Source: Candidatus Omnitrophota bacterium
GTDB lineage: Bacteria; Omnitrophota; Gorgyraeia; Zapsychrales; JANLHA01
Length of the DNA stretch: 64,000 bases
Direction: 5' to 3'
NCBI GenBank assembly: GCA_020632535.1
Contig: JACKFJ010000001.1
Location: 346,890 to 410,889, forward strand
The notes under the pieces were generated by a model that worked only from the letters and a program-made list of their open reading frames with translations, was not told where the DNA came from and searched no databases. Both the position numbers and the translations under genes were made by a program. Below, piece by piece: positions 3,601 through 55,591 of this stretch. The first letter of the stretch is position 1. The number at the start of each line of letters is the position of its first letter.

Positions 3601-4132
3601 GGGGGAAGGACCCACAACAGCATCTTCAACTATTAATTACATCCAAAATGTTTTAGCTCCTAATGTTAATGACGCGACATTAGTAAAATCTATTAATGAT
3701 TCCTTACCTAAAAAATTCACTGCGCCACAAAAAGGTTTAGTCGCAGAGGGGTTTTCGACAATTAAGCAAACTGCTGCTGAAAATCCGGCTTTAGCGGCAA
3801 GAATTGCTGAGGTGGCAACGGTTAGTCAACTTATGGCCGTCATAGAAAGTGACGCTTCTTTGTCGGGAAAGATTAGTGGAGCGCAAATAGCCCAGATGCA
3901 ACGGGTAGAAGATCGTGATATTCAGAAACTCGGTGGTATCGATTTAAGTGCGGAGCGTATGGACTTGCAGATTAATCGCGACGGAAATGGTGTGGTCTTG
4001 CCGATTTCTGATCAAGACCTTAAAGATTTAAAAATTGATGGTTTAGCTCCAATTATTCTTGGTGTTGAGCCAGCAACGCCGGCTAGCGTGCCGTTCTTGA
4101 TGAATTTGTCTGGTGGAACGACCGGTAAATAA
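617..4132 (+). CDS. large secreted/surface protein of unknown function (1171 aa)
   Basis: RBS aaggagaag precedes the ATG. N-terminal signal-like segment VYVFVVLSFVINLISPTFSFAQE. Ordered-looking N-terminal (~330 aa) and C-terminal (~90 aa) regions flank ~750 aa of Cys-free Ala/Ser/Asn/Gln-rich sequence with recurring NP-x-A and FRN motifs. A hairpin terminator follows. Confidence 0.75.
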   Translation: MPTKKFVYVFVVLSFVINLISPTFSFAQEIDLKLPPPSKIKPISKVYAPAMIKAVTVNPKDPFLFDFIIDRGDSDLSDEAFEVETQKLVKYFLAALTIPESDLWVNLSPYEKDAMVPQVLGVTELGKDLLVEDYYLKQVTAAMTNPNTPTGKKFWSLAYAKAQELYGTKQVPINTFSKVWIVPDQATVLEKDGSAFIADSHLKVFLDQDYLAITKNLDNKEIGTDKLGTAKTQDINGFSSAIIRDVVLPEIEKEVNAGENFATVRQIYSSAILAAWYKKRLKESLLGKLYADQGKVAGVNAADMDSGDKIFEKYTAALKTGAYNIIKQDFDLSTQKILQRKYFSGGVKMAPTASTAIKQWTPQVVETLNPAAKLAVSSAVASIQRASSGAVGQAKVPSRFSVASVRVANASAAVTERVNARVQNNQSFRSTGAWDSAEIARTLLERLQEAPAQDSSVIEDLAIRAALTTTPANLSTALNLNSTLQGLPENTKNSMRDGLANVKPEMIGNPGLVNGTSPVRTLIEVAKRNPSDMLDSLGMGSAELAMYLVAKEGPQSDSQLEKIGFTPEQVSRIQGYVSRLEETAPAKWTELKTHVNNPGIFANEANNLLANAHQLDATGRTESFQQFKQQMPRAIADLSGTQAVSSSSALQERNDLQAVILINSVQQAGLANYYEQSSNPQIRDNASKISAAMVKVAENPNNFRNPSALVMALESTDRSLSPEVILAVSNAPAIAELANVQRTSFSNQQNALSALPFADEATISQALSAAGVANAPQVAKNFTTFRNENPTAARNTSTLASANQSEMAGAFEQAATTSGFQQAMTPYVATNSDPQWSVLAFAPENDVAEAIRVSAKKTMTEARAAAKQIADVRRKNPSALRNADTFRAAVEAPVAEDIGNLVAQNAFVGLVNRYSPPTAAINKANINVVAHQLYGAMSEKDRSDLRLTSVAQVGRLLASAQGSGALNDADKLASTRKLNTLLTLPSVQPVARNLLGEGPTTASSTINYIQNVLAPNVNDATLVKSINDSLPKKFTAPQKGLVAEGFSTIKQTAAENPALAARIAEVATVSQLMAVIESDASLSGKISGAQIAQMQRVEDRDIQKLGGIDLSAERMDLQINRDGNGVVLPISDQDLKDLKIDGLAPIILGVEPATPASVPFLMNLSGGTTGK

Positions 4133-36900: not shown

Positions 36901-38388
36901 ATGAAAGTTCTATTTTTAACACCACCGCTAAAAGCTTGGGATTCACATGGAGATCACAAAGCCGCCAATCAAATGCACGCGCAGCTTGCCGCCTATTTAC
37001 GTGAAAAAAAATTAGCTGAGGTTGCTGCTTTGGATTGCCGCGCCTTGGACATGACATGGGAAGACATGATTAAGGAAGTTGCTAAAATCAAGCCGGGTCT
37101 CGTTTTTGTCGGAGAGCTTTTGCATTCGACATGCGGGGCGGCCGTTATTGGTTATTTTAACGATGCTTTAAAGTTAATAAAAGAGTACGACAAAAATATT
37201 AAAACAGTGGCTGGCGGACTTTGGTATTCGGGCGACTATGATCGGCAAATGCGTTTAAATCCGTGGATCGATTATATCATGATCGGTGAAGCCGAATTGA
37301 CATTAGAGGATCTCTTGATCAATTTTCGTGATCAGAAAAAAGATGAAAAGGACATTCCCGGCCTTGTTCATCGCGATGCTCAGGGAACGATCGTAGTTGG
37401 GCCGCATCGGGACATGATTCCTGATCTCAATGTTTTGCCGATGCCAGCTTATGATCTTTTTCCGATGGAAAAATACGTTGGCCATACGTATTGGAAACCA
37501 TTCGCGGAGCTTATGACATCGCGCGGCTGTCCGGGCAAATGCCATTTTTGTTACGAATGGGCTTTGTATGATTCGCGCACGGCCGCAAAAGATTTTACAT
37601 CATGGCGCGGATTAAAAGGTAAGCGCATTGTTGATGAATTAGATCTTCTCGAAAAAACTTACGGTGTGACAACAATCGTCTTTCAAGATGACGCCTTTAA
37701 CACCGACACCGCGGCGATGATTGAGTTCTGCGAAGAAAAATTAAAACGTGGTAATAAAATTGACTGGGTGTGTTTAGGTCGTGCGGATCAATGGATTCTT
37801 CAGCAAGACATTTTGCCACTCATGAAAAAGGCGGGACTATTTCTTGCCTTGACCGGCGTTGAGGTTGAGGACGATTTGAGTTTACACAAAAGTGGAAAAG
37901 GGATAACGATTGCGCAGATTAAAAAAACCGTCGATATCTTGCGACAAAACGATATTGGATCCGTCGGAACAGTTTTGATTGGGCTTAAGGAGGACACCGA
38001 AGCAAAAATTAAAGAGCGTTTGCGAATTGCTGATGAAATTGACCCCGATGTGTTCGCGCTTGATTATTTAACACCAGTTCCTAATTCACCGGACTGGAGA
38101 TACGGGATTAAAAAGGGTTGGTTTGATCCCGAAAAAATTGATCTAAAGACTTGGGATTTTCAACATCCGGTTATCCCGACTGACTTTTTAACAGTTGAAG
38201 AAGTCGGACGTTTAGGGGCGTGGTGTATGCGTGAATATTATTCCAAGCCAGAGAGAATTCATCGCATTTTTTCCAGCAACTATGACGAAAAAGTCAAGTT
38301 ATGCGTTAAGGACTTCATGGCGAATATTGCCAAATGGGAAGCTAACTCGCGCATGCCAGCGACAACAGGCATCGCCGTAAATAAGTAA
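36901..38388 (+). CDS. B12-binding-domain radical SAM enzyme (class B rSAM)
   Basis: N-terminal cobalamin-binding-like domain (MKVLFLTPP...). Radical SAM cluster motif SRGCPGKCHFCYEW (CxxxCxxC). RBS aaggag. Confidence 0.85.
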   Translation: MKVLFLTPPLKAWDSHGDHKAANQMHAQLAAYLREKKLAEVAALDCRALDMTWEDMIKEVAKIKPGLVFVGELLHSTCGAAVIGYFNDALKLIKEYDKNIKTVAGGLWYSGDYDRQMRLNPWIDYIMIGEAELTLEDLLINFRDQKKDEKDIPGLVHRDAQGTIVVGPHRDMIPDLNVLPMPAYDLFPMEKYVGHTYWKPFAELMTSRGCPGKCHFCYEWALYDSRTAAKDFTSWRGLKGKRIVDELDLLEKTYGVTTIVFQDDAFNTDTAAMIEFCEEKLKRGNKIDWVCLGRADQWILQQDILPLMKKAGLFLALTGVEVEDDLSLHKSGKGITIAQIKKTVDILRQNDIGSVGTVLIGLKEDTEAKIKERLRIADEIDPDVFALDYLTPVPNSPDWRYGIKKGWFDPEKIDLKTWDFQHPVIPTDFLTVEEVGRLGAWCMREYYSKPERIHRIFSSNYDEKVKLCVKDFMANIAKWEANSRMPATTGIAVNK

Positions 38389-39143: not shown

Positions 39144-39160
39144 AGTTGGAGTCATTCAAA

Positions 39161-40159
39161 ATGAAAATTGCTGTGATCGGAGCCGGAGCCATTGGATCAG
39201 TTGTCGCCGCGGGATTGTTCAAATCCAACGTCGACGTTCTGCTGGTTGGACGGGCTGATCAAGTCGCAGCCATTAAGGAACGGGGACTGACAATAAAGCG
39301 TTTTGATGGCACTGAAACGCTTAATGTTCCGGTAGCAGAGCGCTTGGATCGTGAATTTGATCTGGTGATTTTTACGACAAAAACGCAGGATGTTGATGAT
39401 GCGTACATGCAAAATTCAGAGTTTATGGAAAATTGTCTGGTGTTGGCGACACAAAACGGGGTGCAGGGAGACAATATTTTAAGTCCACATTTTTTCCCGG
39501 AACGCGTGATAAGCAGTATTGTGATGTTTGGCGCGACCTATGTTAAGCCCGGCGAAGTCACTTACAATTTTCCGGGTGACTGGATTATTGGCAAACGTTT
39601 TGTGATGAATGATATTAAAGTCCATGAGATTGCGGACATTTTAAAGAAAAGTTTTTCGGTTGAAGTGACTGACAATATATTAGGGATGAAATGGTTAAAG
39701 CTTTTCGTTAATTTTAATAATTGTATTCCGGCCTTGATCGGCAAGTCGATGCAGGAAACTTTTACCGATATGGATTTGTGCCGCTTGAGCGTCTCACTTT
39801 TAAAGGAAGCCTTGCCGATTGTACAGAGCGCTAATATCAAACTTGTGTCATTGCCGCAATTTCCTGTTGAGCGGGTGCAAGGCTTAGCGGCCATGCCATT
39901 AGAACAAGGCGCTGGCATTATGAATAAGACATTGACGGGATTAAGCAAAGAGCCGCTTTATGGGTCAATTCTACAAAGTATTTTGCGTGGCAAGACCAGT
40001 GAAATTGATTTTATTAATGGGGAAGTTGTGGCAATCGCATCAGGAATGAGAATGGATGCTCCACTTAATCGTAAAGTTGTGCGTATGGTTCACACCGTTG
40101 AAGAGACGGGAAAGTTTTTTTCAGCAGAAGAAGTTAAAAAGGAATTTAGTTTGGTCTAA
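39161..40159 (+). CDS. 2-dehydropantoate 2-reductase family (ApbA/PanE-like) NAD(P)H oxidoreductase
   Basis: MKIAVIGAGAIGS Rossmann start. LVLATQNG, KLFVNFNNCI and EIDFINGEV match the KPR family. Confidence 0.8.
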   Translation: MKIAVIGAGAIGSVVAAGLFKSNVDVLLVGRADQVAAIKERGLTIKRFDGTETLNVPVAERLDREFDLVIFTTKTQDVDDAYMQNSEFMENCLVLATQNGVQGDNILSPHFFPERVISSIVMFGATYVKPGEVTYNFPGDWIIGKRFVMNDIKVHEIADILKKSFSVEVTDNILGMKWLKLFVNFNNCIPALIGKSMQETFTDMDLCRLSVSLLKEALPIVQSANIKLVSLPQFPVERVQGLAAMPLEQGAGIMNKTLTGLSKEPLYGSILQSILRGKTSEIDFINGEVVAIASGMRMDAPLNRKVVRMVHTVEETGKFFSAEEVKKEFSLV

Positions 40160-40251: not shown

Positions 40252-40270
40252 CTGAGGGATGGAGTTTTAT

Positions 40271-41527
40271 ATGGCACGACGAGTCGTAGTTACTGGTATC
40301 GGAATTGTTTCACCCAATGGCGTCGGTAAAGAAGCCTGTTGGAAAAGTATGATCAATGGCGTGTCGGCGGTTAAACGTGTGACCGAGTTTGATGTGACAC
40401 CTTTTAATACCAAAATTGCCGCGCAGGTCAGAGATTTTGATCCTGTCATGTTGGGCTTGACGTGGGAAGAAAGTATGCGCATGGATCGCTATGTGCAGTT
40501 TGCGGTTGTCAGCGCGCGTATGGCCCTAGAAGATTCCCATTTGAATTTGAGCAAAGTTAATCCCCAGCGAATTGGTGTTTCTCTTGCCAACGCGATTTGC
40601 GGGACCAAATATATGGAAGAGGAATTTGCGCTTGTGACCGACAGCGGCAAAAATCCAATTAATCCCGCGATTGTTCGCCCTGATCTTTATGACGCGGCGA
40701 TGTTTAATACACCGTCGAGCGAAATTTCCGCGAAGTATGGACTTAAAGGTGTTTGCAATACGATCTCGACGGGTTGTACTGCGGGAACTGATTCGGTAGG
40801 GTTTTCGTTTGAAACGATTATGGATGGCGATGCGGATATTATGGTGACCGGTGCGGCCGAAGCCCCGATTACCCCGATCACATTTGGCGCGTTTGATACC
40901 GTCAATGTTCTTTCAGCGATGAATGAATTTCCAGAAAAAGCGTCTCGTCCTTTTGATGCGAAGCGCAATGGTTTTGTCATTTCTGAAGGCGCAGGTGTTC
41001 TCATTCTCGAAGAATTACAACATGCCAAGAAGCGTGGCGCACGGATTTATTGTGAAGTCGTTGGTTTTGGGACGACCAACAATGCTTTTCATATGACGGA
41101 TTTACCTCCGGATGGCGACGCGATGGCCGATTGCATTAATATTGCGATGGATGAAGCAAAAGTCAAGCCACAAGACATCGATTATCTTAATGCCCACGGT
41201 TCCTCGACGAGGCAGAATGATGTTTTTGAAACGAGCGCGTATAAAATGGCTTTAGGAGATCACGCGTACAAAATTCCAATCAGTTCGCTTAAGTCGATGA
41301 TTGGCCATCCCTTGGCTGGCGCCAATGGTTTGGAACTTGCCGTTGGATGTATGATTTTTGAACGTAATATTTTGCCGCCGACAATCAATCAAGAATTTCC
41401 AGATCCACAATGTGATTTAGATTATATCCCCAACGTGAGTCGTGAAAAGAAAGTTAATGTCATGTTAAAAACTTCGAGCGGTTTTTCGGGGATCCACTCG
41501 GCCATGGTGTTAAGAAGATTTGAATAA
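40271..41527 (+). CDS. type II polyketide synthase ketosynthase alpha (KS-alpha)
   Basis: RRVVVTGIGIVSPNG. TISTGCTAGTDSVG with the Cys codon at 40775-40777. EAPITPITFGAFD, ASRPFD, FHMTD, NAHGSST, PDPQCDLDYIP and SSGFSGIHSAMVLRR. Collinear with actinorhodin-type KS-alpha as I remember it. Confidence 0.9.
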   Translation: MARRVVVTGIGIVSPNGVGKEACWKSMINGVSAVKRVTEFDVTPFNTKIAAQVRDFDPVMLGLTWEESMRMDRYVQFAVVSARMALEDSHLNLSKVNPQRIGVSLANAICGTKYMEEEFALVTDSGKNPINPAIVRPDLYDAAMFNTPSSEISAKYGLKGVCNTISTGCTAGTDSVGFSFETIMDGDADIMVTGAAEAPITPITFGAFDTVNVLSAMNEFPEKASRPFDAKRNGFVISEGAGVLILEELQHAKKRGARIYCEVVGFGTTNNAFHMTDLPPDGDAMADCINIAMDEAKVKPQDIDYLNAHGSSTRQNDVFETSAYKMALGDHAYKIPISSLKSMIGHPLAGANGLELAVGCMIFERNILPPTINQEFPDPQCDLDYIPNVSREKKVNVMLKTSSGFSGIHSAMVLRRFE

Positions 41528-41561: not shown

Positions 41562-42794
41562 ATGCAGCCTATTGCGATTACCGGTATCGGTTTAGTTACA
41601 CCCAGCGGGATTGATAAAAGAAAGTTTTGGTCGAATATTGTCCATGGCCGATCCGTCATTAAGAAAATTGATCGTTTTGACGCATCATTATATGAATCTC
41701 ATATTGCCGGACAAGTGCATGAATTAGACGCATACAGCAATGTCTCCTCGCGGCTTTTAAAAAAGATCGATTTATTTTCGCATATGGGTTTGGTCGCCTC
41801 CGAAATCGCGATCACTGACGCTAAGCTAGATCTTGCGCAAGAGAACTTGAAACGCGCTGGTATTTTTATGGGTAATGCCATTGGCGGTTGGCTCTACGCC
41901 GAAACCGAATTGCGTGATTTGTATCTAGAGGGAAGAGAAGGCGTAAGCCCATTTATGGCCTCCGCGTGGTTTCCCGCCGCGCCGCAAGGTCAAATTTCCA
42001 TTCATTACGGCATTAAGGGCTACAGCAAAACCATCGTCGCTGATCGAGCGAGTTCTCTGATGGCCATCGGCTATGGCGCAAAAAATTTATTGCGCGGCAA
42101 AAACGACTTTATTCTTGCCGGCGGCATGGAGGCGCCTGTCACACCGTACGCGCTTTTGTGTTGCAACACATCGGGGTGTCTTTCTTCTAATAATGACGAA
42201 GCCGAAACCGCGTATCGGCCGTTTGATAAACAACGTGACGGGTTTGCCATTGCTGAGGGCGCGGGAATTTTGATTTTAGAACCACAAGAGCGTGTCAAAT
42301 CGCGCGGTGCACATGTGTATGGCAATATTATTGGTTTTGCGACGACGACAGATGGTGTGAATCGTATTGAACCTGCGACGGACGGTGTGGAATTGGCCCG
42401 CGCGATCAAAATGGCTTTGGATGATGCCGGCCTTGCGCAGAAAGATATTGATTATATTTGTGCCGACGGTGCGGGCGGACTTTTAAGCGATATTTCTGAA
42501 ACCAAGGCGATCAAATTAGTCTTTGGTGATTACGCTAAAAAGATCCCAATTTCAGCGCCCAAAGCCGTTTTCGGAAATATGTTAGGCGCGTGCGGCGCGC
42601 TTGATGTGATAACGACATTGTTGGCGATGGAGCATGACCTTATTCCACCGACGATTAATCTCAAAATGCCTGACCCACAATGTGATTTAGATTATGTTCC
42701 CAATGAAGCGCGTGCCAAAGTTATAAAAAATGCGATGGTCATCAATCGCGGCCGCGGCGGCATCAATTGCGTTTTAGTTTTGCAGAAACCTTAA
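41562..42794 (+). CDS. type II PKS ketosynthase beta / chain-length factor-like subunit (catalytic triad absent)
   Basis: KS fold (IAITGIGLVTPSG, AWFPAAPQGQISIHYG). TIVADRASSLMAIG replaces the Cys motif, with Arg codon CGA at 42045-42047. TTDGV replaces HMTD and CADGAGG replaces NAHGSST. PDPQCDLDYVP is retained. Confidence 0.85.
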   Translation: MQPIAITGIGLVTPSGIDKRKFWSNIVHGRSVIKKIDRFDASLYESHIAGQVHELDAYSNVSSRLLKKIDLFSHMGLVASEIAITDAKLDLAQENLKRAGIFMGNAIGGWLYAETELRDLYLEGREGVSPFMASAWFPAAPQGQISIHYGIKGYSKTIVADRASSLMAIGYGAKNLLRGKNDFILAGGMEAPVTPYALLCCNTSGCLSSNNDEAETAYRPFDKQRDGFAIAEGAGILILEPQERVKSRGAHVYGNIIGFATTTDGVNRIEPATDGVELARAIKMALDDAGLAQKDIDYICADGAGGLLSDISETKAIKLVFGDYAKKIPISAPKAVFGNMLGACGALDVITTLLAMEHDLIPPTINLKMPDPQCDLDYVPNEARAKVIKNAMVINRGRGGINCVLVLQKP

Positions 42795-42800
42795 CGTGTT

Positions 42801-42865
42801 TGTCATTCCCGCGAAAGCGGGAATCCATAGAAGCGGATCCCCGATACAAGCGCTCTGGGATGACA
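42801..42865. repeat. family-A palindromic repeat element, copy 2
   Basis: tgtcattcccgcgaaagcgggaatcc hairpin, then a degenerate ggatccccga...ctgggatgaca hairpin. Lies between the CLF and ACP genes. Confidence 0.8.
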
Positions 42866-42884
42866 TGATTATTAGGAGGAGTGT

Positions 42885-43115
42885 ATGTCAGTTGAAGAGC
42901 AAGTCAAAGCTGTTTTTAAAAAAGTCCTTGATATCAATCCATCCGAAATCAAACCCAATGAACAGTTAGGCGCGTCATTAGGCATTGATTCAACGGAATT
43001 AGTTGAGATTTCCGTCGGGATCAAAAAGGAAATTGGAGTTGCGTTAGCGGATAGCGAACTTAAAAAATCACACACATTTAACGAAATCATCAAAATCATT
43101 GAGTCAAAGAAATAA
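42885..43115 (+). CDS. acyl carrier protein (PKS-associated)
   Basis: 76 aa, four-helix pattern, phosphopantetheine-attachment motif LGIDSTELVE. RBS aggagga. Confidence 0.85.
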   Translation: MSVEEQVKAVFKKVLDINPSEIKPNEQLGASLGIDSTELVEISVGIKKEIGVALADSELKKSHTFNEIIKIIESKK

Positions 43116-43123
43116 TAAAAACA

Positions 43124-43232
43124 CTGTCATTCCCGGGACCTTTGGGAGTACCCGGTACGAGGGTGCAATCTCTTAGCGGGAATCCATTATTTTAAAGTTA
43201 TGGATCCCCGATTAAAGCATTCGGGGATGACA
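43124..43232. repeat. family-A palindromic repeat element, copy 3 (first hairpin carries a ~40-nt insertion)
   Basis: ctgtcattcccg[ggacc...ctctta]gcgggaatcc, then ggatccccgattaaagcattcggggatgaca. Confidence 0.8.
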
Positions 43233-43245
43233 AAAGCAGGTAATT

Positions 43246-44043
43246 ATGATCATCGACCTTTCCTTACCTATCGACGACAAACTCGTCGAAACCCATGATG
43301 CCAAAATCGACCGCATTTCGCATGCACAAGGTGTTGAGCATTTTAATTGGGTTGTTATGAAAAATCAGCCCGGCGGTCAAGAACGTTTTGACAAAGGCGA
43401 GCGCGTCGCGACCAAAGAAGAAATTCCTGACGGCGAAATGTTATCACTCGAAATCGTTCATTCATCCGTTCATATGGGTAGTCACGTTGACGCGCCGTTT
43501 CATTATGGCAGCACATGCGAAGGCAAGCCTGCCAAGCAAATTATGGATGTTCCGCTTGAGTGGTGTCTTGGTCCCGGTGTTGTTTTAGATTTTACCCACA
43601 TTCAATTTCCCGCCGCAATTGGCAAAAAAGATGTACAAGACGCTTTAGCAAAAATCAATTACAAACTAAAACCGATGGATATTGTTTTGCTTTATACTGG
43701 CGGTGACAAGTTGCTCGGCACAGATGATTATGTTAATAAATATGTCGGTTGCACAGTAGACGCGATTGAATATTTGCTGGATCAGGGTATCAAGATGATG
43801 GGTGTGGACACGATTGGTTTAGATCGGCCATGCTTTTTGATGTTTAAGGAATTTTTGACGACGAAAGATAAGAGTAAGATTTGGCCATGCCATTTCTTGG
43901 GTCGTCGTAGGGAATATTGTCACATGGAGCGCTTGGGAAATTTGGGCGCGATACCCAAACCATTTGGTTTTACGGTTTCTTGTTTGCCGGTTAAAGTTAG
44001 AAATGCCGGAGCGGGATGGAGCCGCGTTGTCGCGATTGTTTAA
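43246..44043 (+). CDS. cyclase-family protein (PF04199; kynurenine-formamidase / putative polyketide cyclase fold)
   Basis: The family motif HxGTHxDxPxH is present as HMGSHVDAPFH. Also MGVDTIGLD. Confidence 0.75.
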   Translation: MIIDLSLPIDDKLVETHDAKIDRISHAQGVEHFNWVVMKNQPGGQERFDKGERVATKEEIPDGEMLSLEIVHSSVHMGSHVDAPFHYGSTCEGKPAKQIMDVPLEWCLGPGVVLDFTHIQFPAAIGKKDVQDALAKINYKLKPMDIVLLYTGGDKLLGTDDYVNKYVGCTVDAIEYLLDQGIKMMGVDTIGLDRPCFLMFKEFLTTKDKSKIWPCHFLGRRREYCHMERLGNLGAIPKPFGFTVSCLPVKVRNAGAGWSRVVAIV

Positions 44044-44061
44044 TTTATGGAGGATTCGCTG

Positions 44062-44565
44062 ATGTTTAAAAAATTAATATTAGGTATGTTTATTTTTCTT
44101 TTGACGAGTGTAGCGTCGGCGGATGTTTTGGTGTTTAAATCAGGAAAGACTGTTGAAGGACTTATCACTAAAGTCACCGAAACAGGTATTACCTTTCAAT
44201 CAGGGAATGATACTTTAGGCGTAAGCTATACGCAAATCAAGGATATCCGTGAATCGACTGGGCCGAATGCAAGAAATAGTCCCCATATCGCGATAGCCCG
44301 AGGAGACGGTGTTTCGCAAGCGAGTGCTGGGACTCAAACAAAAAAAGTGGTTGTGTATATGACAAGTTGGTGTGGGTATTGTCGAAAAATGACCGCTTTT
44401 TTAAAGCAAAATGGAATAGCTTACACTGCGCATGATATTGAAAAGAATGATATGGCCAAGAAGATGTATCAAAAGTATGGTGGACAGGGTGTTCCTCTTG
44501 TCATTGTTGGCGAGAAGGTCATTCGTGGTTATAATCCTGATGGCGTTGTTGCCGCGTTGCGATAA
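44062..44565 (+). CDS. exported glutaredoxin/thioredoxin-fold protein
   Basis: Signal peptide MFKKLILGMFIFLLTSVASA. C-terminal VVVYMTSWCGYCRKM (CxxC) ... GVPLVIVGEKVIRGYNP. An alternative upstream start exists at 44047. Confidence 0.7.
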   Translation: MFKKLILGMFIFLLTSVASADVLVFKSGKTVEGLITKVTETGITFQSGNDTLGVSYTQIKDIRESTGPNARNSPHIAIARGDGVSQASAGTQTKKVVVYMTSWCGYCRKMTAFLKQNGIAYTAHDIEKNDMAKKMYQKYGGQGVPLVIVGEKVIRGYNPDGVVAALR

Positions 44566-44573
44566 AGATAATT

Positions 44574-44852
44574 GTGAGTGAAGAAAATTATAAATTTAAT
44601 ATTCCTGACGAAATTTACGGTCAAGTCATCGATGGCATTGATTTGCAGATTTTAAGCTCGGACTCGGTGCGGATTATCGAAGCGTATGTAAAGCAGGAAG
44701 GGGAGCTAAGCGAAATTCAAGAACGGGTTTTACATCAATGCGAGCGTGAGCTTCAGGTAGTTATTCTTAAGACTGAAGGTAAGCTTCGTGAATATTTTAA
44801 GCAGGTTTTGCACGGCATCATGGATGTCATTAAAAAGTTGAAGCATATATAA
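44574..44852 (+). CDS. hypothetical protein (92 aa, GTG start)
   Basis: ORF only. Helical, acidic, no motif recognised. Confidence 0.4.
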   Translation: MSEENYKFNIPDEIYGQVIDGIDLQILSSDSVRIIEAYVKQEGELSEIQERVLHQCERELQVVILKTEGKLREYFKQVLHGIMDVIKKLKHI

Positions 44853-44867
44853 ACATTCGGAGGTCAG

Positions 44868-44907
44868 TTATGGGACACACACGTAATTCAATTGTTATCA
44901 GTGCACC
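44868..44907 (+). repeat. 40-bp direct repeat, upstream copy (duplicated RBS-proximal 5' end of the aromatase/cyclase gene)
   Basis: ttatgggacacacacgtaattcaattgttatcagtgcacc is identical to 45452-45491. Weaker similarity extends ~10 nt further upstream (cggag..ag). Creates a 16-codon stub ORF, 44870-44920. Confidence 0.9.
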
Positions 44908-44949
44908 TGATCGATTTTAATTTAGAACTATACCTCGAAAGGACATAAA

Positions 44950-45135
44950 ATGATATCTCCCAAAAAAGAAATGACAAAAATTATTGAACGACAGCCAGAG
45001 GACAGCTCGTATGACGAAATCCTTCGTGAACTTGCTTTTGCCCGAATGATTGACCGTGGACTAAGCGACTCCAAGGCTAAGCGTACAATTAGTAATGCGC
45101 AAATGAAACAAAGGATTGTTAAGTGGCAGAAATAA
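44950..45135 (+). CDS. type II antitoxin (ParD/RelB-like addiction-module component)
   Basis: 61 aa. SYDEILRELAFARMIDRGLSDSKAKRTISNAQMKQRI is the pattern of small antitoxins paired with ParE/RelE toxins. Overlaps the toxin start by 13 nt. Confidence 0.65.
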   Translation: MISPKKEMTKIIERQPEDSSYDEILRELAFARMIDRGLSDSKAKRTISNAQMKQRIVKWQK

Positions 45136-45425
45136 AGTGGACCAAAGAAGCGCAAACTTGGCTTAAGGATATCCATGATTATATCGCGCTTGAAAATGCG
45201 AAGGCAGCAGCCAAAATTATTGAAGAAATTTTTCAGAGGGCACAGATTTTAAAACGTTTGCCGGAGATTGGTTACAAATATGATCGTTACCCCAATGTTA
45301 ATATCCGTATTTTGCTTTACGGGCATTATCGTATCGCGTATTTGATTAAAAGGGATCACAATATTGATATTTTGGGTGTTTTTCATGGCGCGTTAGATAT
45401 TGATCGGTACATTCAAAAATCGTAA
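45123..45425 (+). CDS. type II toxin, RelE/ParE family
   Basis: 100 aa. IKWTKEAQTWLKDIHDYIA ... GHYRIAYLIKRDHNIDILGVFHGALD is the typical ParE/plasmid-stabilisation toxin layout. GTG start. Confidence 0.75.
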   Translation: MAEIKWTKEAQTWLKDIHDYIALENAKAAAKIIEEIFQRAQILKRLPEIGYKYDRYPNVNIRILLYGHYRIAYLIKRDHNIDILGVFHGALDIDRYIQKS

Positions 45426-45451
45426 TAATATAAATTAAAACGGAGATAAGT

Positions 45452-45491
45452 TTATGGGACACACACGTAATTCAATTGTTATCAGTGCACC
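45452..45491 (+). repeat. 40-bp direct repeat, downstream copy (authentic 5' end of the aromatase/cyclase gene)
   Basis: Identical to 44868-44907. Confidence 0.9.
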
Positions 45492-45909
45492 GTATAGTTT
45501 GGTTTTCGACATTTCCAATAAGATTGAACGTTGGACAGAATTGTTCGGCGATGAATATGTGAGCGCCGAAGTTTTGGAACGCAAGGACAATGAAATTGTT
45601 TTTCGCTTAACCGACGACGAAAAAAAGTCGTGGGTTTCCAAACGATGGCTTTTTAAGGAACACAATCTCGCGTATGCGTCACGGTATGAGCCGATGTTTC
45701 CGTTTCGCTATATGAAAATTATCTGGCTGTATAACGAAACTTCCGAAGGCACGGAAATGATTTGGATGCAGGATTTTGCGATGGATGAAAAATTTACCAA
45801 ATTCACAGAGACACAGATTGAAGGCTTTATTAATGAGCATTCACAGCATAATATGAAAATATTTAAAAAGGTCATTGAGGCTGAGGCTAAAGTAACAGTG
45901 GACAAATAG
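45454..45909 (+). CDS. SRPBCC aromatase/cyclase (TcmN N-terminal-domain / WhiE-ORFVI-like ARO/CYC)
   Basis: TRNSIVISAPYSLVFDISNKIERWTELFGDEY ... SWVSKR ... FRYMKIIWLY ... GTEMIWMQDFAMDE parallels the TcmN ARO/CYC sequence as I recall it ([30 protein letters not shown] ... MRWVQEFDM). Confidence 0.8.
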   Translation: MGHTRNSIVISAPYSLVFDISNKIERWTELFGDEYVSAEVLERKDNEIVFRLTDDEKKSWVSKRWLFKEHNLAYASRYEPMFPFRYMKIIWLYNETSEGTEMIWMQDFAMDEKFTKFTETQIEGFINEHSQHNMKIFKKVIEAEAKVTVDK

Positions 45910-45910
45910 T

Positions 45911-46100
45911 CCTGTCATTCCTGCAATCTTTTATCGGGAATCCATGAATATAAGTAATCCTGTCATTCCCGCAATCTTTTAGCGGGAATCCATGAATATA
46001 AGTGGATCCCCGATAGTAACATTCGGGGATGACATGTTGAATCATTCGGGGATGACATGTTGAATCATTCGGGGATGACATGTTGAATCATTGGGGATGA
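45911..46100. repeat. family-A repeat cluster, copy 4: a 48-nt unit x2, then a 23-nt unit x3.5
   Basis: cctgtcattcc(t/c)gcaatctttta(t/g)cgggaatccatgaatataagt at 45911-45958 and 45959-46003. attcggggatgacatgttgaatc at 46021-46043, 46044-46066 and 46067-46089, plus a partial attggggatga at 46090-46100. Confidence 0.9.
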
Positions 46101-47245
46101 GAAGGCTGGGAGTTTGTATTAGTAGTCGCAAAGTCACGTTTTTTCTTTTTTGTCTGGCGAATGTAACAATTTCGTTTAATTTTGCGGCTTTGGCTGCAGC
46201 AGTACCTCTGATGAGCAAGGGACTGCAGCAAAGCGAAAATGTTGTTTCTCAGATTTCCGCGTATTACATGATTCCATATGGAATCGGCGCGCTTATCTAC
46301 GCGCCTTTAGCGCGAATGATAAGCGTAAAGTGGATTCTCGCGGTCGCGATGGCGGTGTATGGAATTTTAAGTTTTGTTTGCGCGCTAAATTCGTCAATTA
46401 CGATCATTCTCGGAACTCGAGTTGTGATGGGTTTAGCGGCAGCGTGCGTAATTCCTTTATGTTTGATTTCAGTGGGAAGCATATTTGAAAAAGATGTTCG
46501 TGGCCGCATGGTCGGTTTATTTTTCTCGACGAGCTTTATCGCGTCTGTTGCCGGCATAGCTGTTAGTGGATTGTGTGATTGGCGCTGGCTGTTTATTGTG
46601 CCGGGCATTTTGGGTATTGTGACTGCCATTTTTATGGTATATGGCGCCCAAGCCATTCTAAAAGTAGGGCAGCTGCCCCCAGTTGATTATTTGCGAGTTT
46701 GGCGACAAAAGAGTGTCAGAAATATTTTGTTGTTTATTTTTGTGTTGAGCTTTTTGTATCACGGGATTCATAAATGGCTCGCGGTTTATTTACATCGTCA
46801 ATACGGATTAGAGCAGTGGGCCATTAGCGCGCTTTTTATTCTCATCGCGTTGACCGGCGCGGTTGGGCAAAATGTGGGCGGATATATCACGGATCATCTT
46901 GGCCGTCGTGTGGCGTGTTATTGGGGTGTGATGATTTTAGCGGCGGCGACCGTATTACTCTTCGGAAAATATTCTTTATTTATTTTAGCGGGTATTTTAG
47001 CGGTATTTTCGATGGGTTGGGCGCTTGGGCATAATGGGATTTCAACGGTTTTGACGGACTTTCCCGACGAGAACCGCAGCGAAATCGCCGGATTGAACTC
47101 CGCGATACGCTTTTTTAGCGGCGGCTTAGGGTTTTTTGTTGGTGGGCCGTTTGTCGAAAGGAACATTGCGCTCACGTTTTGTGGATTTGGCATTGTCATG
47201 TTTTTGTCTTCGTTTTTTGTTAAGAAAATTATACCGAAATCATAA
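46097..47245 (+). CDS. MFS transporter
   Basis: About 12 TM helices. MFS loop motif-like GRMVGLFF. The start (ATG 46097 or TTG 46091) lies inside the last degenerate 23-nt repeat. Confidence 0.8.
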   Translation: MRRLGVCISSRKVTFFLFCLANVTISFNFAALAAAVPLMSKGLQQSENVVSQISAYYMIPYGIGALIYAPLARMISVKWILAVAMAVYGILSFVCALNSSITIILGTRVVMGLAAACVIPLCLISVGSIFEKDVRGRMVGLFFSTSFIASVAGIAVSGLCDWRWLFIVPGILGIVTAIFMVYGAQAILKVGQLPPVDYLRVWRQKSVRNILLFIFVLSFLYHGIHKWLAVYLHRQYGLEQWAISALFILIALTGAVGQNVGGYITDHLGRRVACYWGVMILAAATVLLFGKYSLFILAGILAVFSMGWALGHNGISTVLTDFPDENRSEIAGLNSAIRFFSGGLGFFVGGPFVERNIALTFCGFGIVMFLSSFFVKKIIPKS

Positions 47246-47257
47246 AGGGGGAATGAA

Positions 47258-48031
47258 ATGGTTAATCTCAAGGGAAAGAACGCGATTATTACCGGAGCCA
47301 GCAAAGGGATTGGTAAGGCGGTGGCGATGCGCTTGGCCGAGAATGGAATTAATATTGCCATTGCTGCGCGTACCAAAGGACCGCTGGATGAAGCGGTCGC
47401 TGATATCAAAAGCAAGACTGGTGTTAAGGTTATTGGCATTGTGACCGATGTTGCCAAAATGGCAGATTTAGAAAATTTGGTAAATACAGCGATGAAAGAG
47501 TTTGGGCATATTGATATTCTTGTTAATAATGCGGGAGTTTCTAGCCAATATCTTTTCGAGAAGCAGCCGATCGAAGAATTTGAAAAACTTGTATACACCA
47601 ATTATCTTGGATATATCCGCATGATCAAATTGCTTATCGATCATTTTGTTGCCCGTAAAGGCGGCTCGATTATCAATATGGTTTCTGGATCGACGTTGGT
47701 TGATCCGATTCCGCGAACATTTTTAGTTTACAGTTCGCTAAAAGTTGGTTTGCGGGCGTTTTTAAAAGGCCTGTTTTGGGAAATGCGTGATAAGGGCATT
47801 AAGGTTACATCCATTTTGCCCGGTGTTGTCGATAGTGATTTGACGGGGCATTTGCAGGATATTACGACGGAACAAAAAGACCGGCTTATGTCGCCGCAAG
47901 CCGTCGCGGATATGGTGATGTTCGCTTTATCATGTCCGGCCAACAGTTGTCCACTGGAGCTTGCTGTCATTAATCAGCAGACGCCGTGGACCAAGCCCGT
48001 GATTGACTATGCTCAGGCACAGGCTAAATGA
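47258..48031 (+). CDS. short-chain dehydrogenase/reductase (possible polyketide ketoreductase)
   Basis: TGASKGIGKAVA (TGxxxGxG), NNAG, S...YSSLK (Ser-Tyr-Lys triad). RBS aaggggg. Confidence 0.85.
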   Translation: MVNLKGKNAIITGASKGIGKAVAMRLAENGINIAIAARTKGPLDEAVADIKSKTGVKVIGIVTDVAKMADLENLVNTAMKEFGHIDILVNNAGVSSQYLFEKQPIEEFEKLVYTNYLGYIRMIKLLIDHFVARKGGSIINMVSGSTLVDPIPRTFLVYSSLKVGLRAFLKGLFWEMRDKGIKVTSILPGVVDSDLTGHLQDITTEQKDRLMSPQAVADMVMFALSCPANSCPLELAVINQQTPWTKPVIDYAQAQAK

Positions 48032-49548: not shown

Positions 49549-51095
<1,547 letters not shown>

Positions 51096-51285
51096 CTTTT
51101 TTTTATCGTCGCAAGGCGAGAGAGAAGGAAAACCAGTCTTATGTGTACGGACAAACCATCAGTCAATTGATGGGAGTTTTAATTGAGTAAATGAAAGAGC
51201 GTTTTGGAGCAAATTGCTTCAAAACACTTGGCTAGTTTTATTTGGTAATGCAAAATCATGGGTTAGTTAGGGCCAAAATTTTCGG

Positions 51286-51362
51286 GGGCCCATAGCTCAG
51301 TTGGTTAGAGCACCGTCTTGATAAGGCGGGTGTCAGTGGTTCAACTCCACTTGGGCCCACCA
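51286..51362 (+). tRNA. tRNA-Ile (anticodon GAT), CCA encoded
   Basis: Cloverleaf by hand: acceptor gggccca/tgggccc, D arm gctc..gagc, anticodon loop ttGATaa, T arm agtgg ttcaact ccact, then a-cca. Confidence 0.95.
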
Positions 51363-51441
51363 ATTTTTCAGCGGTGATCGTTGCATATGTCGTGGTAATG
51401 CATTGCCCCACTGGAGAATCAACTTCACGTTGAAATAACTT

Positions 51442-51514
51442 GGGGCTGTAGCTCACCTGGTAGAGCACCTGCTTTGCAAGCAGGGGGTAAGGAGTTCGAT
51501 CCTCCTCAGCTCCA
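51442..51514 (+). tRNA. tRNA-Ala (anticodon TGC), CCA not encoded
   Basis: Acceptor ggggctg/cagctcc with the G3:U70 identity pair, anticodon loop ttTGCaa, T arm aggag ttcgatc ctcct. Confidence 0.95.
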
Positions 51515-51567
51515 CTTTTTCTATCAGTTAAGCTATAAAAATGATAAAAAGATCAATATAGAATTTT

Positions 51568-51638
51568 GGGACTACCGTAAGGTAGTCCCACTTGTTCTTT
51601 GACAGTTATGGAATAAAAGGGTAACAATGAATCGAGAA
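51568..51638 (+). promoter_or_regulatory. spacer boxB-like hairpin, boxA-like element and the 5' strand of the 23S processing stem
   Basis: gggactacc gtaa ggtagtccc (51568-51589). tgttctttgaca (51593-51604). cagttatggaataaaagggtaa (51603-51624) is perfectly complementary to 55354-55375, and gaatcgagaa (51629-51638) pairs with ttcttgattc (55341-55350). Confidence 0.7.
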
Positions 51639-53628
51639 TGGTTTACCATAGTTTGTGATCAAATTATTAAGAGTATACGATGAATGACTTGGCAGACTAA
51701 GGCGATGAAGGACGTGATAAGCAGCGATATGCTTCGGGGAGCCGCAAATAGGCTTTGATCCGGAGATTTCCGAATGGGGCAACCCCGTTAGGGTTATACC
51801 TAACGATGGCTCTCTGAATACATAGGAGAGATCAAGCGAAACGCTGAGAATTGAAACATCTAAGTATCAGCAGGAATAGAAACCGAAAGGGATTCCCCCA
51901 GTAGCGGCGAGCGAAAAGGGAAAAGGCTAAACCTTACAGTTTACTGTGAGGGGTTGTGGGGCCTCAATATGGGATTGTTTAGTGGTAGGCGAAGCGGCTG
52001 GAAAACCGCACCATAGGAAGTGAAAGTCTTGTAGCCGAAATTACTAAGCACCTTAGAGGTACCCCAAGTACTACGGGGCACGGGAAATTCCGTAGGAATC
52101 TGGCCCGACCATGGGCTAAGCCTAAATACTAAAGTCTGACCGAAAGGGAACTAGTACCGTGAGGGAACGTTGAAAAGAACCCCGGCGAGGGGAGTGAAAT
52201 AGAACCTGAAATTGTATACTTACAAGCTGTCAGAGGCCTATGCATACCTTCGGGTATGAATGGCTGATGGCGTACCTTTTGCATAATGGACCGACGAGTT
52301 ATTATATCGTGCAAGCTTAAAGGCTTATGGCCTGTAGGCGCAGCGAAAGCGAGTCTGATAAGGGCGACAATAAGTACGATATAACAGACCCGAAACCAGG
52401 TGATCTATCCATGGCCAGGTTGAAGCTGTGAGAAATCTCAGTGGAGGACCGAACCCATAAACGTTGAAAAGTTTAGGGATGAGCTGTGGATCGGAGTGAA
52501 AGGCTAATCAAACTTGGAAATTGCTGGTTCTCCCCGAAATAGTTCTAGGACTAGCCTCGGGAAATATCATGATAGGGGTAGAGTTACTGAATAGGCTAGG
52601 GGGCTTACCAGCCTGCCAAACCTAACCAAACTCCAAATACTATCATGTTTTAACCGGGAGTTAGACATTGGGGGCTAAGCTTCAATGTCGAGAGGGAAAC
52701 AGCCCAGACCATCGACTAAGGTCCCAAATATCATCTAAGTGGTAAAGGAAGTGGAATCACATAAACAGCCAGGATGTTGGCTCAGAGGCAGCCATCATTT
52801 AAAGAGTGCGTAACAGCTCACTGGTCGAGTGACTTCGCGCCTAAAATGAACGGGGCTCAAGATGATAACCGAAGTCATGGCTTTTATCTTTCTTCGGAAA
52901 GAAAAGGGGTAGGGGAGCGTAACGTCAAGCGTTGAAGGTGTACCGTAAGGAGCACTGGAGTAGACGTTAGTGATACTGTCGGTATGAGTAGCGAAAACTA
53001 TGGCGAGAAACCATAGCGTCGAAAATCTAAGGTTTCCTGGGGAAGGTTAATCCACCCAGGGTTAGTCGATCCTAAGTTGAGGCCGAAAGGCGTAAGCGAT
53101 GGATATCTGGTTAATATTCCAGAACCGGCTATGAACGTTATCAGCTTAGTGTGACGCAGTGGGCTAGTTACGCGGGGTGTTGGATGTCCCCGTTTGGGCT
53201 AATAGTCCTGTTTAATCGCAGGATGAGGAGCTTGACAACCTGCGGCTACGGCCAAAGGAATGGTAATGAGGCTAGGCTGTCAAGAAAAACCACTAAGTGA
53301 GTATCATAGCTGATCGTACCGTAACCCGACACAGGTAGATGATCATAGAATGATAAGACGCTCGAGAGAAATGTCTCTAAGGAACTAGGCAAAATGACCC
53401 CGTAACTTCGGGAAATGGGGTGCCTGATTGGTCAAGTCCCTCGCGGATGTAGCCATGATGGTCACAGTAAAGAGGCCCGGTCGACTGTTTAGTAAAAACA
53501 CATCACTTTGCTAACTCGAAAGAGAACGTATAAGGTGAGACACCTGCCCAGTGCTGGAAGGTTAACGGGAGAGGTCAGCGCAAGCGAAGCTTCGAACCGA
53601 AGCCCCAGTAAACGGCGGCCGTAACTAT

Positions 53629-54341
53629 AGACAAGACCAACTGTAGTTGTAAAATTTGGCTATATGCTGGAACGTCCTGTTAAGCTGATCGTACGCGCCT
53701 TCATTGAAAGGATGCGTGACAATCGATTAGATAGGGATAATCAGCAGGAAAGGTCTGAAAATGAATCCAGAAATCGGATATTACCTTGCCGGTTTTGCGG
53801 ATGGAGAAGGAAGTTTTAATATTTCTTTTCGCCGCAGGCAAGATTATAAAATTCCATGGAAAATTTCTCTGTGTTTTAATATTTCCCAAAAAGATAAAGT
53901 TATCTTGGCTTTATACAAACATCATTTAGGATGCGGTACGTTACGCGGTAGGCCTGACGGTGTTTGGTATTATGAGGTCAATAACTTCAATGCCATCCGA
54001 GAAAAGGTAATACCTTTTTTCAAAAAATATCATTTTCTTTCTGCAAAGAAGAAACGCGATTTTGCGAAATTCTGCCAAGCCGTAGAAATGATAGAACAAG
54101 GCAAACATCTGCACTATGAAGGTATAAAGGAAGTATTAGAATTACGAAGAGAAATGAACGACGGAGGGAAACGCAAATTCAGTGAAAATGATATCCTCCG
54201 CGCTTTTCAGAAATCCTCAGAGACTATACGCCAAATCCCATCGCAAGATGGGAATGATATAGTCCGATCTTCAGAGAAATCTGAAGTCATCAAAGTAAGA
54301 ATTGATGAGCAGGGTTAAAAGTAACCTTGTTAACATAAATG
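53629..54341 (+). mobile_element. group I intron at the 23S U1917 (E. coli numbering) site
   Basis: The 5' exon ends in U (53628) and the intron ends in G (54341). Removing 53629-54341 restores ccgtaactataacggtcctaaggtagcg. A candidate internal guide gtagttgt (53643-53650) pairs with exon gtaactat (53621-53628), giving a U:G pair at the splice site. Carries a LAGLIDADG ORF. Confidence 0.85.
53761..54318 (+). CDS. LAGLIDADG homing endonuclease (single-motif, I-CreI-like size)
   Basis: YLAGFADGEGSFNISF motif at residues 8-23. 185 aa, with a basic C-terminal half. Located entirely within the 23S intron. Confidence 0.85.
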   Translation: MNPEIGYYLAGFADGEGSFNISFRRRQDYKIPWKISLCFNISQKDKVILALYKHHLGCGTLRGRPDGVWYYEVNNFNAIREKVIPFFKKYHFLSAKKKRDFAKFCQAVEMIEQGKHLHYEGIKEVLELRREMNDGGKRKFSENDILRAFQKSSETIRQIPSQDGNDIVRSSEKSEVIKVRIDEQG

Positions 54342-55397
54342 AACGGTCCTAAGGTAGCGAAATTCCTTGTGGGGTAAGTTCCCACGCGCACGAATGGTGT
54401 AACGAATTGGGCGCTGTCTCGGAGACATACTCGGTGAAATTGTAGCGGCGGTGAAGATGCCGTCTACCCGCACCAAGACGAAAAGACCCCAGAACCTTTA
54501 CTGCATTCTGGTATTGAGTTTTGGTCCTATTTGTGTAGGATAGGTGGGAGGCTTTGAAGCTCGGGCGCTAGCTCGGGCAGAGCCAACGGTGAAATACCAC
54601 CCTGATAGTATTAGAATTCTAATCCTGTCCCGTGAAACCGGGCAGGCAACAGTGCCAGATGGGCAGTTTGACTGGGGCGGTTCCCTTCTAAAGAATAACG
54701 AAGGGGTTCAAAGGTCTCCTCATGACGGTTGGCAATCGTCAGTAGAGTGTAAAGGCATAAGGAGGCTTAACTGCGAGTCCGACAGGACGAGCAGATACGA
54801 AAGTAGGACTTAGTGATCCGGTGGTTGGTCATGGGACTGCCATCGCTCAACGAACAATAGGTACTCTGGGGATAACAGGCTGATCGCGCTCGAGAGTTCA
54901 TATCGACAGCGCGGATTGGCACCTCGATGTCGGCTCATCCTATCCTGGGGCTGTATAAGGTCCCAAGGGTCCGGCTGTTCGCCGGTTAAAAGGGTACGTG
55001 AGCTGGGTTTAGAACGTCGTGAGACAGTTCGGTCTCTATCTGGTGTGGGCGTGTGATACTTGAAGGGGAGATCTTCTTAGTACGAGAGGACCGGAAGATA
55101 CGAACCACTGGTGTTCCAGTTATCCTGCCAAGGGTAATGGCTGGGTAGCCAAGTTCGGAATGGATAAGCGCTGAATGCATATAAGTGCGAAACCAACCCC
55201 AAGATAAGGTATCGATTCTGCGTAAGCAGAGAGAGGCTCCTTGTAGACTACAAGGTTGATAGGCTGCGAGTGTAAGTTCTGAAAGGAATTCAGCTAAGCA
55301 GTACTAATAAGCCGAGAGTTTGATCACTTAAAAAAGCTTTTTCTTGATTCGTTTTACCCTTTTATTCCATAACTGAAAATTTCATGAAACGGAATTT

Positions 55398-55459
55398 TCA
55401 TTGCAAAGTTAAAGTGTGTAGCAATCTAAATTGCTTCGTCATTTCGTTCTTCGCAATGA
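55398..55459 (-). repeat. family-B repeat element in the 23S-5S spacer
   Basis: The reverse complement reads cattgcgaagaac..gacgaagcaa..ttagattgctac. The same three blocks occur in forward orientation at 62665-62717. Termini tcattgca / tcgcaatga are inverted. Confidence 0.65.
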
Positions 55460-55467
55460 TAGATATA

Positions 55468-55584
55468 TTCCGGTAACATTGCTGAAGGGGCAACACCCGT
55501 TCCCATACCGAATACGGAAGTTAAGCCCTTCGAGGTCGATGGTACTTTAGTCGCAAGGCTACGGGAGAGTAGAACGTTACCGGT
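55468..55584 (+). rRNA. rrf: 5S ribosomal RNA
   Basis: ccggtaac...gttaccgg terminal helix. cccgttcccataccgaatacggaagttaagc and ggtactttagtcgcaaggctacgggagagtag match conserved 5S blocks. Confidence 0.9.
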
Positions 55585-55591
55585 TTAATTT

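Follow-up and report, generated by a model that had tools for sequence, protein, structure and literature searches.

A toxin-antitoxin (TA) pair of the ParE/RelE superfamily lies inside a type II polyketide synthase (PKS) operon of a Candidatus Omnitrophota bacterium, between a small conserved gene, here called orf92, and the gene for a polyketide cyclase. The arrangement was studied in a stretch of 64,000 nucleotides (nt) of contig JACKFJ010000001.1 (assembly GCA_020632535.1, positions 346,890 to 410,889 of the forward strand), hereafter the window, whose own coordinates, counted from its first letter, are used below. Our results suggest that the pair is probably a bona fide and ancient 'insertion with long target duplication' at the orf92/cyclase junction. 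This mode of insertion is known for restriction-modification (R-M) units (Nobusato et al. 2000, Gene 259:99; Furuta, Abe and Kobayashi 2010, PMC2853133), where the class is defined by an insert smaller than 20 kb without any other mobile element, a duplication of variable length exceeding 30 base pairs (bp), and a single copy of the duplicated sequence in the empty site of a relative (PMC2853133). New here is the presence of TA cargo in this known insertion class. A 2013 review by Mruk and Kobayashi attributes the insertion mode to R-M systems only (PMC3874152), and a literature search for long-target-duplication insertion of classical TA pairs, incomplete in its coverage, found no report.

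The most conspicuous feature of the locus is a pair of direct repeats. Positions 44868-44907 and 45452-45491 agree at 40 of 40 nt in direct comparison, the two copies being 584 nt apart, so that a first-pass annotation of the window had correctly read two identical copies bracketing only two open reading frames (ORFs). Across the whole window the 40-mer matches at these two places alone, even when three mismatches are allowed (none expected, from 100 shuffles); it is the start of a single-copy gene, that of the cyclase. Extended without gaps, the repeat reaches 49 nt at 92% identity (44868-44916 and 45452-45500), and both the exact and the extended lengths exceed the 30 bp by which the class is defined. 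The left target copy (44868-44916, plus strand) opens a stub ORF of 16 codons, MGHTRNSIVISAPDRF followed by a stop (44870-44920, plus strand), whereas the right target copy (45452-45500, plus strand) heads the intact cyclase gene.

Between the perfect copies lies an insert of 544 nt (44908-45451), a complete gene unit devoid of any mobility gene, whose only ORFs are those of the antitoxin and the toxin. Its non-coding parts amount to a leader of about 33-42 nt and a trailer of 26 nt, and its G+C content is 36.8% as against 42.5% in the neighbouring DNA. The first nine positions after the perfect repeat (44908-44916) are identical to their right-copy equivalents at 5 of 9. The left arm of the insert (44917-44949, plus strand) is a 5' leader bearing the ribosome-binding site (RBS) of the antitoxin, TCGAAAGGA; it is kept, in any context, in all six members of the cassette family whose left arm lies on the contig (the window, L010, L009, L008, L172 and L173; loci are referred to by such labels), L171 having been left out because its contig is cut on that side. 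The right arm (45426-45451, plus strand) is a spacer that supplies the cyclase with the RBS GGAGATAAG, which also stands before the cyclase ATG in L171 and is unlike the native cggaggtcag at 44858-44867. The earlier claim that similar RBS regions stretch the repeat to about 50 nt was correct as to the likeness of the stretches before the two ATGs (cggaggtcagtt and cggagataagttt), but these differ by two mismatches and one indel and so fall outside the perfect repeat.

Relatives provide the empty site that the first-pass annotation had proposed to look for. In empty loci, a gap of only 17-36 nt separates orf92 from the cyclase gene behind it; the target is present once and the TA pair is missing. 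Such loci include L001 and L002, where the gap is 17 nt and the cyclase is 92% identical to that of the window, as well as L011, L012, L066 and many others, and in those named the single copy aligns with both repeats of the window. In a Furuta-style comparison that takes the empty site as the target, the left and right copies agree with each other at 40 of 40 positions and each agrees with the target at 34 of 40, the target for the left copy being that of L001. The flank upstream of the left copy likewise matches the empty site of L001; the window tracks the empty site as far as 44907 and then diverges, and the right copy resumes the gene. The presence of an empty site with one copy bears out the claim that the TA pair entered at the start of the cyclase gene, with the target duplicated and the gene left intact. 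The stub, for its part, has no standing as an independent conserved gene: its equivalents occur only where DNA has been inserted, and empty loci have no stub.

A structure of this kind invites the suspicion that the repeat misled the assembler, the more so as the source is a metagenome-assembled genome. That explanation is hardly credible, as both typical reads and the k-mers used for assembly exceed the 40 nt of the repeat, and the stub-TA(-cyclase) order recurs in independent assemblies from other samples (L010 at NCBI; L009 and L171 at ENA).

On the evidence of its sequence, the inserted pair is a type II toxin-antitoxin module of the ParE/RelE superfamily, with toxicity and its neutralisation predicted. 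The toxin gene (45123-45425, plus strand; 100 amino acids, GTG start) matches PF05016 (ParE_toxin) in a Pfam profile search with E=3.3e-15 and 56.8 bits against a cutoff of 23. It scores 19.8 bits against TIGR02385 (RelE_StbE), under the cutoff of 27.9, and matches PDB entry 6x0a, 'plasmid stabilization system', with E=0.0026. Its action may be that of ParE, directed at gyrase, or that of RelE, which cleaves mRNA in dependence on the ribosome. The antitoxin gene (44950-45135, plus strand; 61 amino acids) is co-oriented with the toxin gene and overlaps it by 13 nt. Of 86 related loci, 84 have a homolog of it directly upstream of the toxin. Both genes are under purifying selection, the proportions of nonsynonymous and synonymous differences (pN and pS) being 0.04-0.065 and 0.41-0.77 for the antitoxin and their ratio about 0.1 for both. 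A family name for the antitoxin was sought in Pfam, NCBIfam and PDB and no match was returned; a homolog encoded by a Leptospira plasmid bears the annotation 'hypothetical' and adjoins a RelE/ParE toxin. The pair thus resembles ParDE/RelBE-type II systems in the overlap of a small antitoxin gene with a PF05016 toxin gene of about 100 amino acids in a pairing that is kept over dozens of loci, and in the purifying selection on both genes. It differs from them in an antitoxin outside the named families of those three databases and in having no recognisable promoter or operator of its own.

The closest relatives of the toxin, which are 78-88% identical to it, show the cassette in several states. 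L010 has the order stub, TA pair, cyclase, with a stub of 16 codons and a repeat that is only 39/44 identical. In L009, stub and TA pair stand between unrelated genes; the stub there has 27 codons and a stop that overlaps the antitoxin ATG, no right-hand copy is present, and the neighbours match nothing in any cyclase locus (over 1.4 kb of L009 sequence). L171 shows TA pair and cyclase, its left side being cut by the contig end, and L008 shows orf94, TA pair and cyclase, with no stub. In L172, orf92 and the TA pair are followed by a second, diverged copy of the orf92 3' end, and in L173 the TA pair occurs in an unrelated context without a stub. A decayed stub in L172 is hinted at by the alignment, too weakly to be claimed. 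Two of these loci also carry, at the orf92/cyclase junction, a gene for a secreted protein whose start overlaps a copy of the orf92 3' end (L172 724-825, L010 1-81). In L010 this gene precedes the stub, in L172 it follows the TA pair, and it has the appearance of a second small cassette here.

Comparison of the window with L010 and L009 bears on the age of the insertion. In all three, similarity to the cyclase stops at the same place, about codon 15-16, and the segment from the stub (ending ...CC) to the antitoxin ATG has the same length, 42 nt, and is homologous throughout. A common junction together with a common 42-nt spacing in three lineages points to a single founding junction. The TA and cyclase genes are near synonymous saturation between these lineages (pS 0.5-0.77) and the spacers differ at 12-15 of the 42 positions; because the same junction is found in lineages as deeply diverged as L010 and L009, the insertion would have happened once and long ago. 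As judged from these alignments, then, the insertion is ancient, is of single origin, and duplicated the start of the gene to about codon 15-16.

The first-pass annotation had pictured a fresh event in this genome. A recent, lineage-specific insertion, in which the copies are identical because the event is young, would agree with the 40/40 identity, with the empty state of the closest cyclase relatives and with an insert slightly richer in AT than its neighbours. It is nonetheless quite improbable, given that L010 and L009 share the junction, the spacing and a homologous spacer with the window although the genes are near synonymous saturation. The nine nucleotides after the perfect repeat, moreover, look like the diverged remnant (5/9) of a longer duplication, and the repeat of L010 is itself imperfect.

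The identity of the copies finds another explanation in the synonymous sites, where each stub tracks the cyclase of its own genome and not the other stubs. The window stub shows 0/38 differences from its own cyclase, 5-9 from other cyclases and 7-8 from other stubs. Three synonymous states found in the window only, CAC, CGT and AGT (codons 3, 5 and 11, respectively), are present in both copies, which argues for recent homogenisation by gene conversion. The perfect 40 nt would accordingly represent a recent conversion tract, or the product of an equivalent repeat-mediated exchange, laid over an old duplication and ending at 44907, and we read 44908-44916 as the unconverted, diverged remainder of the longer duplication. 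The boundary at 44907/44908 would mark the end of this tract, and the breakpoint lies at about codon 15-16 instead of codon ~13, where it had first been placed.

The same sites are relevant to the idea that the stub is a functional upstream ORF or leader, kept by selection, that couples translation of the TA pair to the PKS operon. The stub ORF is open in 3/3 lineages that carry it, its stop in L009 overlaps the antitoxin ATG, and differences within the first 13 codons are mostly synonymous (7/7 when the window is compared with L010; in L009, codons 9 and 11 of the stub differ). The synonymous pattern, however, would follow equally well if the selected cyclase copy had converted the stub. The tail of the stub is not conserved (DRF and stop, YKF and stop, YRFLYK...), and the same TA cassette occurs without a stub in L008 and L173. 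A function for the stub is therefore regarded as improbable.

Occupied loci do not form a monophyletic group: the cyclase genes of L010 and of L011, an empty locus, are 94.8% identical at the nucleotide level, and the window groups with L001, which is empty as well. Such a pattern requires that the pair was lost repeatedly or gained laterally. Between the window and L008, pS is 0.53-0.62 for the TA genes and 0.77 for the host genes. Why the copies are identical and why the distribution is patchy would both be explained by a circle, made up of the TA pair and one repeat copy, that is repeatedly excised and re-integrated, or moved between strains, by Campbell-type homologous recombination. Such a circle would fit the direct repeats of 40-50 nt at a distance of 584 nt, the alternation of occupied and empty loci among close relatives, the lower divergence of the TA genes than of the host genes, and the passage of the stub with the TA pair into L009, whose neighbours are unlike any cyclase locus; a repeat-driven life cycle has also been proposed for R-M units (PMC2853133). 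Against it stand the lack of any observed circular form or tandem amplification and the missing right-hand copy in L009, and it leaves the origin of the first duplication unexplained. Repeats of 40-50 nt are, furthermore, near the lower limit for efficient homologous recombination. We consider the circle possible but rather unlikely; it would in any case be a mode of propagation, compatible with an illegitimate founding event.

Signs of known mobile elements were sought at several levels. No attC R''/R' core pair (RYYYAAC...GTTRRRY) was found on either strand of 44800-45560, and folding was no better than that of shuffled sequence (z +0.5 to +1.5), leaving no attC-like hairpin. The ends of the insert have no inverted repeats and the insert encodes no transposase. 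No integrase or recombinase was found in the insert, or at up to 4 kb from any of the multi-stub loci examined, nor was a recombinase present among the ORFs of the PKS-cluster region, which the scan covered. Duplication length varies, from 40-49 nt in the window to 62-128 nt in other cases, and the breakpoints differ between cases (about codons 16, 19, 28 and 31). A transposon, insertion sequence or miniature inverted-repeat transposable element (MITE) was rejected on account of the lack of terminal inverted repeats, the variable duplication length and the lack of a transposase in the insert. Integrase-mediated integration at a gene end was rejected because the insert and the 4 kb examined around the multi-stub loci hold no recombinase and the crossover point is not constant. 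The view in the first-pass annotation that the duplication exceeds the length of a transposase target-site duplication accords with the lack of a transposase, an integrase or terminal inverted repeats, while its suggestion of a cassette-type, integron-like insertion finds neither attC cores nor a hairpin to sustain it.

Chromosomal integrons have TA pairs as classic cargo, and the likeness deserves to be weighed. With integron TA cassettes the window shares a compact, apparently promoter-less TA unit of about 0.55 kb, direct repeats and an orientation with the surrounding transcription. Integrative elements that bring a replacement gene end, such as tRNA-gene islands, similarly leave a displaced fragment on one side and an intact gene on the other, and arrays of several fragments are seen in L019 and L029. 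The cyclase start has, in addition, been used repeatedly in other species (L019, L029, L036). Even so, a site-specific insertion, whether of an integron-type cassette or of a decayed integrative element with its attachment site in the cyclase start, is very improbable. The repeats of the window are target-gene sequence, single in empty sites, and not attC, with neither R''/R' cores nor a hairpin nor, in the PKS-cluster region scanned, an attI/intI context; the breakpoints are variable; the 544-nt insert holds TA genes only; and no integrase was found near the multi-stub loci.

An ancient insertion with long target duplication remains the reading that we prefer. Its founding event would have been illegitimate, by capture at a staggered break or by template switching, and not encoded by the element; a duplication length that varies between cases (about 44 to 128 nt), the lack of a recombinase, the similar behaviour of different TA families and the lack of conserved ends at the junctions, of which that of L174 lies inside the toxin ORF, all argue in this direction. 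The left copy, which is the start that the cyclase gene originally had, now displaced, keeps its native RBS context as the 16-codon stub, and the right copy heads the cyclase behind a different RBS. Duplication may in this way have rescued expression of the cyclase, the right copy lying behind a GGAG RBS of its own that is common to L171. Inserts flanked by direct repeats should be prone to precise loss through recombination between the repeats, and such easy loss would account for the empty state of the nearest relatives. Among the survivors, addiction modules may be over-represented because cells that lose them are penalised. The idea in the first-pass annotation that the pair may stabilise the locus is a conjecture.

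The architecture is not confined to the window. A survey of about 80 ParE loci from unrelated metagenomes, with toxins 58-70% identical, yielded 64 testable pairs. Significant flanking direct repeats were found for 11/64 of these pairs, compared with 2/197 random control segments of the same size from the same loci, and both control matches came from one locus. Two loci, L167 and L140, were removed from the flanking-repeat count by hand as edge artefacts, and the Fisher p of 4e-7 for the enrichment was computed before their removal. In L117 a ParE pair is flanked by an 88-nt duplication that comprises a promoter-like stretch and 17 codons of a DUF5678 gene; the empty sites L175, L176 and L178 carry one copy, the left and right copies agreeing at 84/88 and each copy with the target at 69/88. 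In L101 and L118 the ParE pairs lie at the 3' end of a gene for an Eco57I-type methylase, of which roughly the last 20 codons are duplicated. L174, whose locus is that of L117, has a VapB/PIN pair (1369-2471) with a duplication of about 128 nt. The PIN gene there derives its last six codons and stop (KWLGD and stop) from the duplicated 3' end of the upstream gene, and another ~210 nt interrupt the left copy. L019 combines a nucleotidyltransferase/HEPN pair with a 92-nt cyclase stub (90% identical) and a second stub, and further cyclase stubs accompany other small genes in L029 and L036.

The region of L019 concerned, from another Omnitrophota species, is an array upstream of the cyclase (1639-4001) in the order DUF433/DUF5615 (PIN-like) pair, first cyclase stub, two small genes, second stub, nucleotidyltransferase/HEPN pair and intact cyclase. 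L108 carries a truncated second antitoxin copy with its leader upstream of the ParE pair (165-580), which indicates that the source of some flanking repeats is the cassette itself, duplicated partially and in tandem.

An unbiased repeat scan of 80 species-representative loci placed these cases in a wider setting. Non-paralogous repeat pairs ended at the cyclase start in 4 of about 20 instances, which tempers the notion of that start as an insertion hotspot, and many of the other repeats were dispersed hairpin or MITE-like elements. In two loci the scan revealed other cargo. L028 (2501-3486) has a 219-amino-acid gene between two copies of the 3' end of a PF04199 cyclase gene, and L056 (2711-3551) has a DUF5674 gene and a 96-amino-acid gene set within a 102-nt repeat (98%) of a 78-amino-acid gene's 3' end. 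A zeta-toxin-like P-loop gene, judged by eye, adjoins the insert of L056. L021 contains a 151-nt MITE-like element with terminal inverted repeats in two copies, 99% identical (2769-2919 and 4612-4762), between which lie a nucleotidyltransferase/HepT pair and the cyclase, together with a C-terminal fragment of the cyclase that is duplicated (4515-4613).

Several points weigh against the interpretation of the window as an ancient insertion of this class, or narrow its reach. Recent excision and re-integration through the repeat would leave the same pattern as conversion. The junctions are too old for the founding mechanism to be read from them, microhomology being no longer assessable, and those of the window are taken from the assembly. 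With synonymous sites near saturation, 'ancient' is a qualitative term that allows no dating from synonymous substitutions per site (dS). The lower divergence of the TA genes than of the host genes between the window and L008 makes some lateral exchange of the cassette likely, giving it a history that would not be purely vertical. In the survey, the enriched repeats are heterogeneous, some being hairpin- or terminator-like or partial cassette duplications, and L117 alone among the enriched cases has empty-site proof. The non-TA cargo of L028 and L056, finally, has the same architecture, which is thus not specific to addiction modules.

R-M units are flanked by repeats more often than average genes (PMC2853133). 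Like their long-target-duplication inserts, the window has a small addiction-type unit without a mobility gene, set between direct repeats of more than 30 bp that are unique in the sequence at hand and align with the one copy that a relative has at its empty site; variable duplication lengths and repeats that often overlap gene ends are further points of agreement. It differs from them in that the cargo is a classical type II TA pair, that the duplication covers a translation start inside an operon, and that the event is old, with the copies kept alike by gene conversion. DNA breakage, proposed as the common cause for R-M units, is not a general one, because RNase-type toxins (HEPN, PIN) show the same architecture. 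As a tentative proposal that may well prove too broad, long and variable target duplication could be a general route of entry and persistence for type II TA pairs (ParE, VapBC, nucleotidyltransferase/HEPN) across phyla, as has been reported for R-M units. The common factor would be retention and not the nuclease of the cargo: inserts flanked by repeats of 40-130 nt would be easily deleted, so that mainly addictive cargo survives, and repeats kept alike by conversion could mediate loss, amplification or transfer.

The operon that received the insert is a type II PKS cluster encoded on the plus strand. It comprises KS-alpha (40259-41527), KS-beta (41562-42794), ACP (42885-43115), a PF04199 cyclase (43246-44043) and a glutaredoxin-like gene (44047-44565), followed by orf92 (44574-44852), the left neighbour of the insertion site. 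Homologs of orf92, a small conserved PKS-cluster gene, lie directly upstream of the cyclase in empty loci; the L001 homolog is 79% identical in amino acid sequence, and Pfam and NCBIfam gave no family match. Beyond the insert come the intact SRPBCC polyketide cyclase/aromatase of 151 amino acids (45454-45909; PF03364, 24.4 bits, above the cutoff), an MFS transporter (46091-47245) and an SDR/ketoreductase (47258-48031). More than 1000 homologs of the cyclase were found, and with one NCBI protein, an Omnitrophica 'polyketide cyclase' encoded on a 505-kb contig, it shares 100% identity. A promoter and terminator scan of 44000-46200 gave counts equal to those of shuffled sequence and nothing convincing around the insert; the TA pair therefore lies in line within the operon, and it would be transcribed together with the PKS genes.

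Other features of the surroundings may be recorded. A B12-binding radical SAM enzyme (36901-38388) and an ApbA-type reductase (39146-40159) are encoded directly upstream of KS-alpha; as they have the same arrangement in relatives, they probably belong to the PKS cluster. Hairpin repeats resembling repetitive extragenic palindromes (REP) occupy intergenic gaps of the cluster (42827-42867, 43146-43234, 45904-45999 and 46020-46096), with units GTCATTCCCGC...GCGGGAATCC and GGATCCCCGA...TCGGGGATGAC. Among them are a tandem pair of 48 nt and three units of 23 nt just after the cyclase, and a similar element occurs in L025. Directly downstream of the cluster is a complete rRNA operon (49549-55585: 16S, tRNA-Ile, tRNA-Ala, 23S, 5S). 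Its 23S rRNA gene (51657-55327) measures 3671 nt as compared with 2925 nt in the Rfam model and contains an ORF (53761-54318) for a LAGLIDADG homing endonuclease of 185 amino acids (PF00961, E=2.7e-21), so that the rRNA gene carries an intron or intervening sequence.

These results would extend a recombinase-free and poorly understood mode of insertion from R-M units to classical TA systems, with at least three TA families represented and two cases in which the empty site is proven. The TA cases weaken cleavage of DNA by the cargo as the cause of the duplication and point to retention by addiction. They also illustrate how an operon can absorb foreign genes without loss of function, as a duplicated start and RBS leave an intact downstream gene, and they suggest that short stub ORFs beside TA pairs are insertion scars and not genes. 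From the flanking repeats, the TA pair is predicted to be polymorphic, present or absent, in populations with this biosynthetic cluster.

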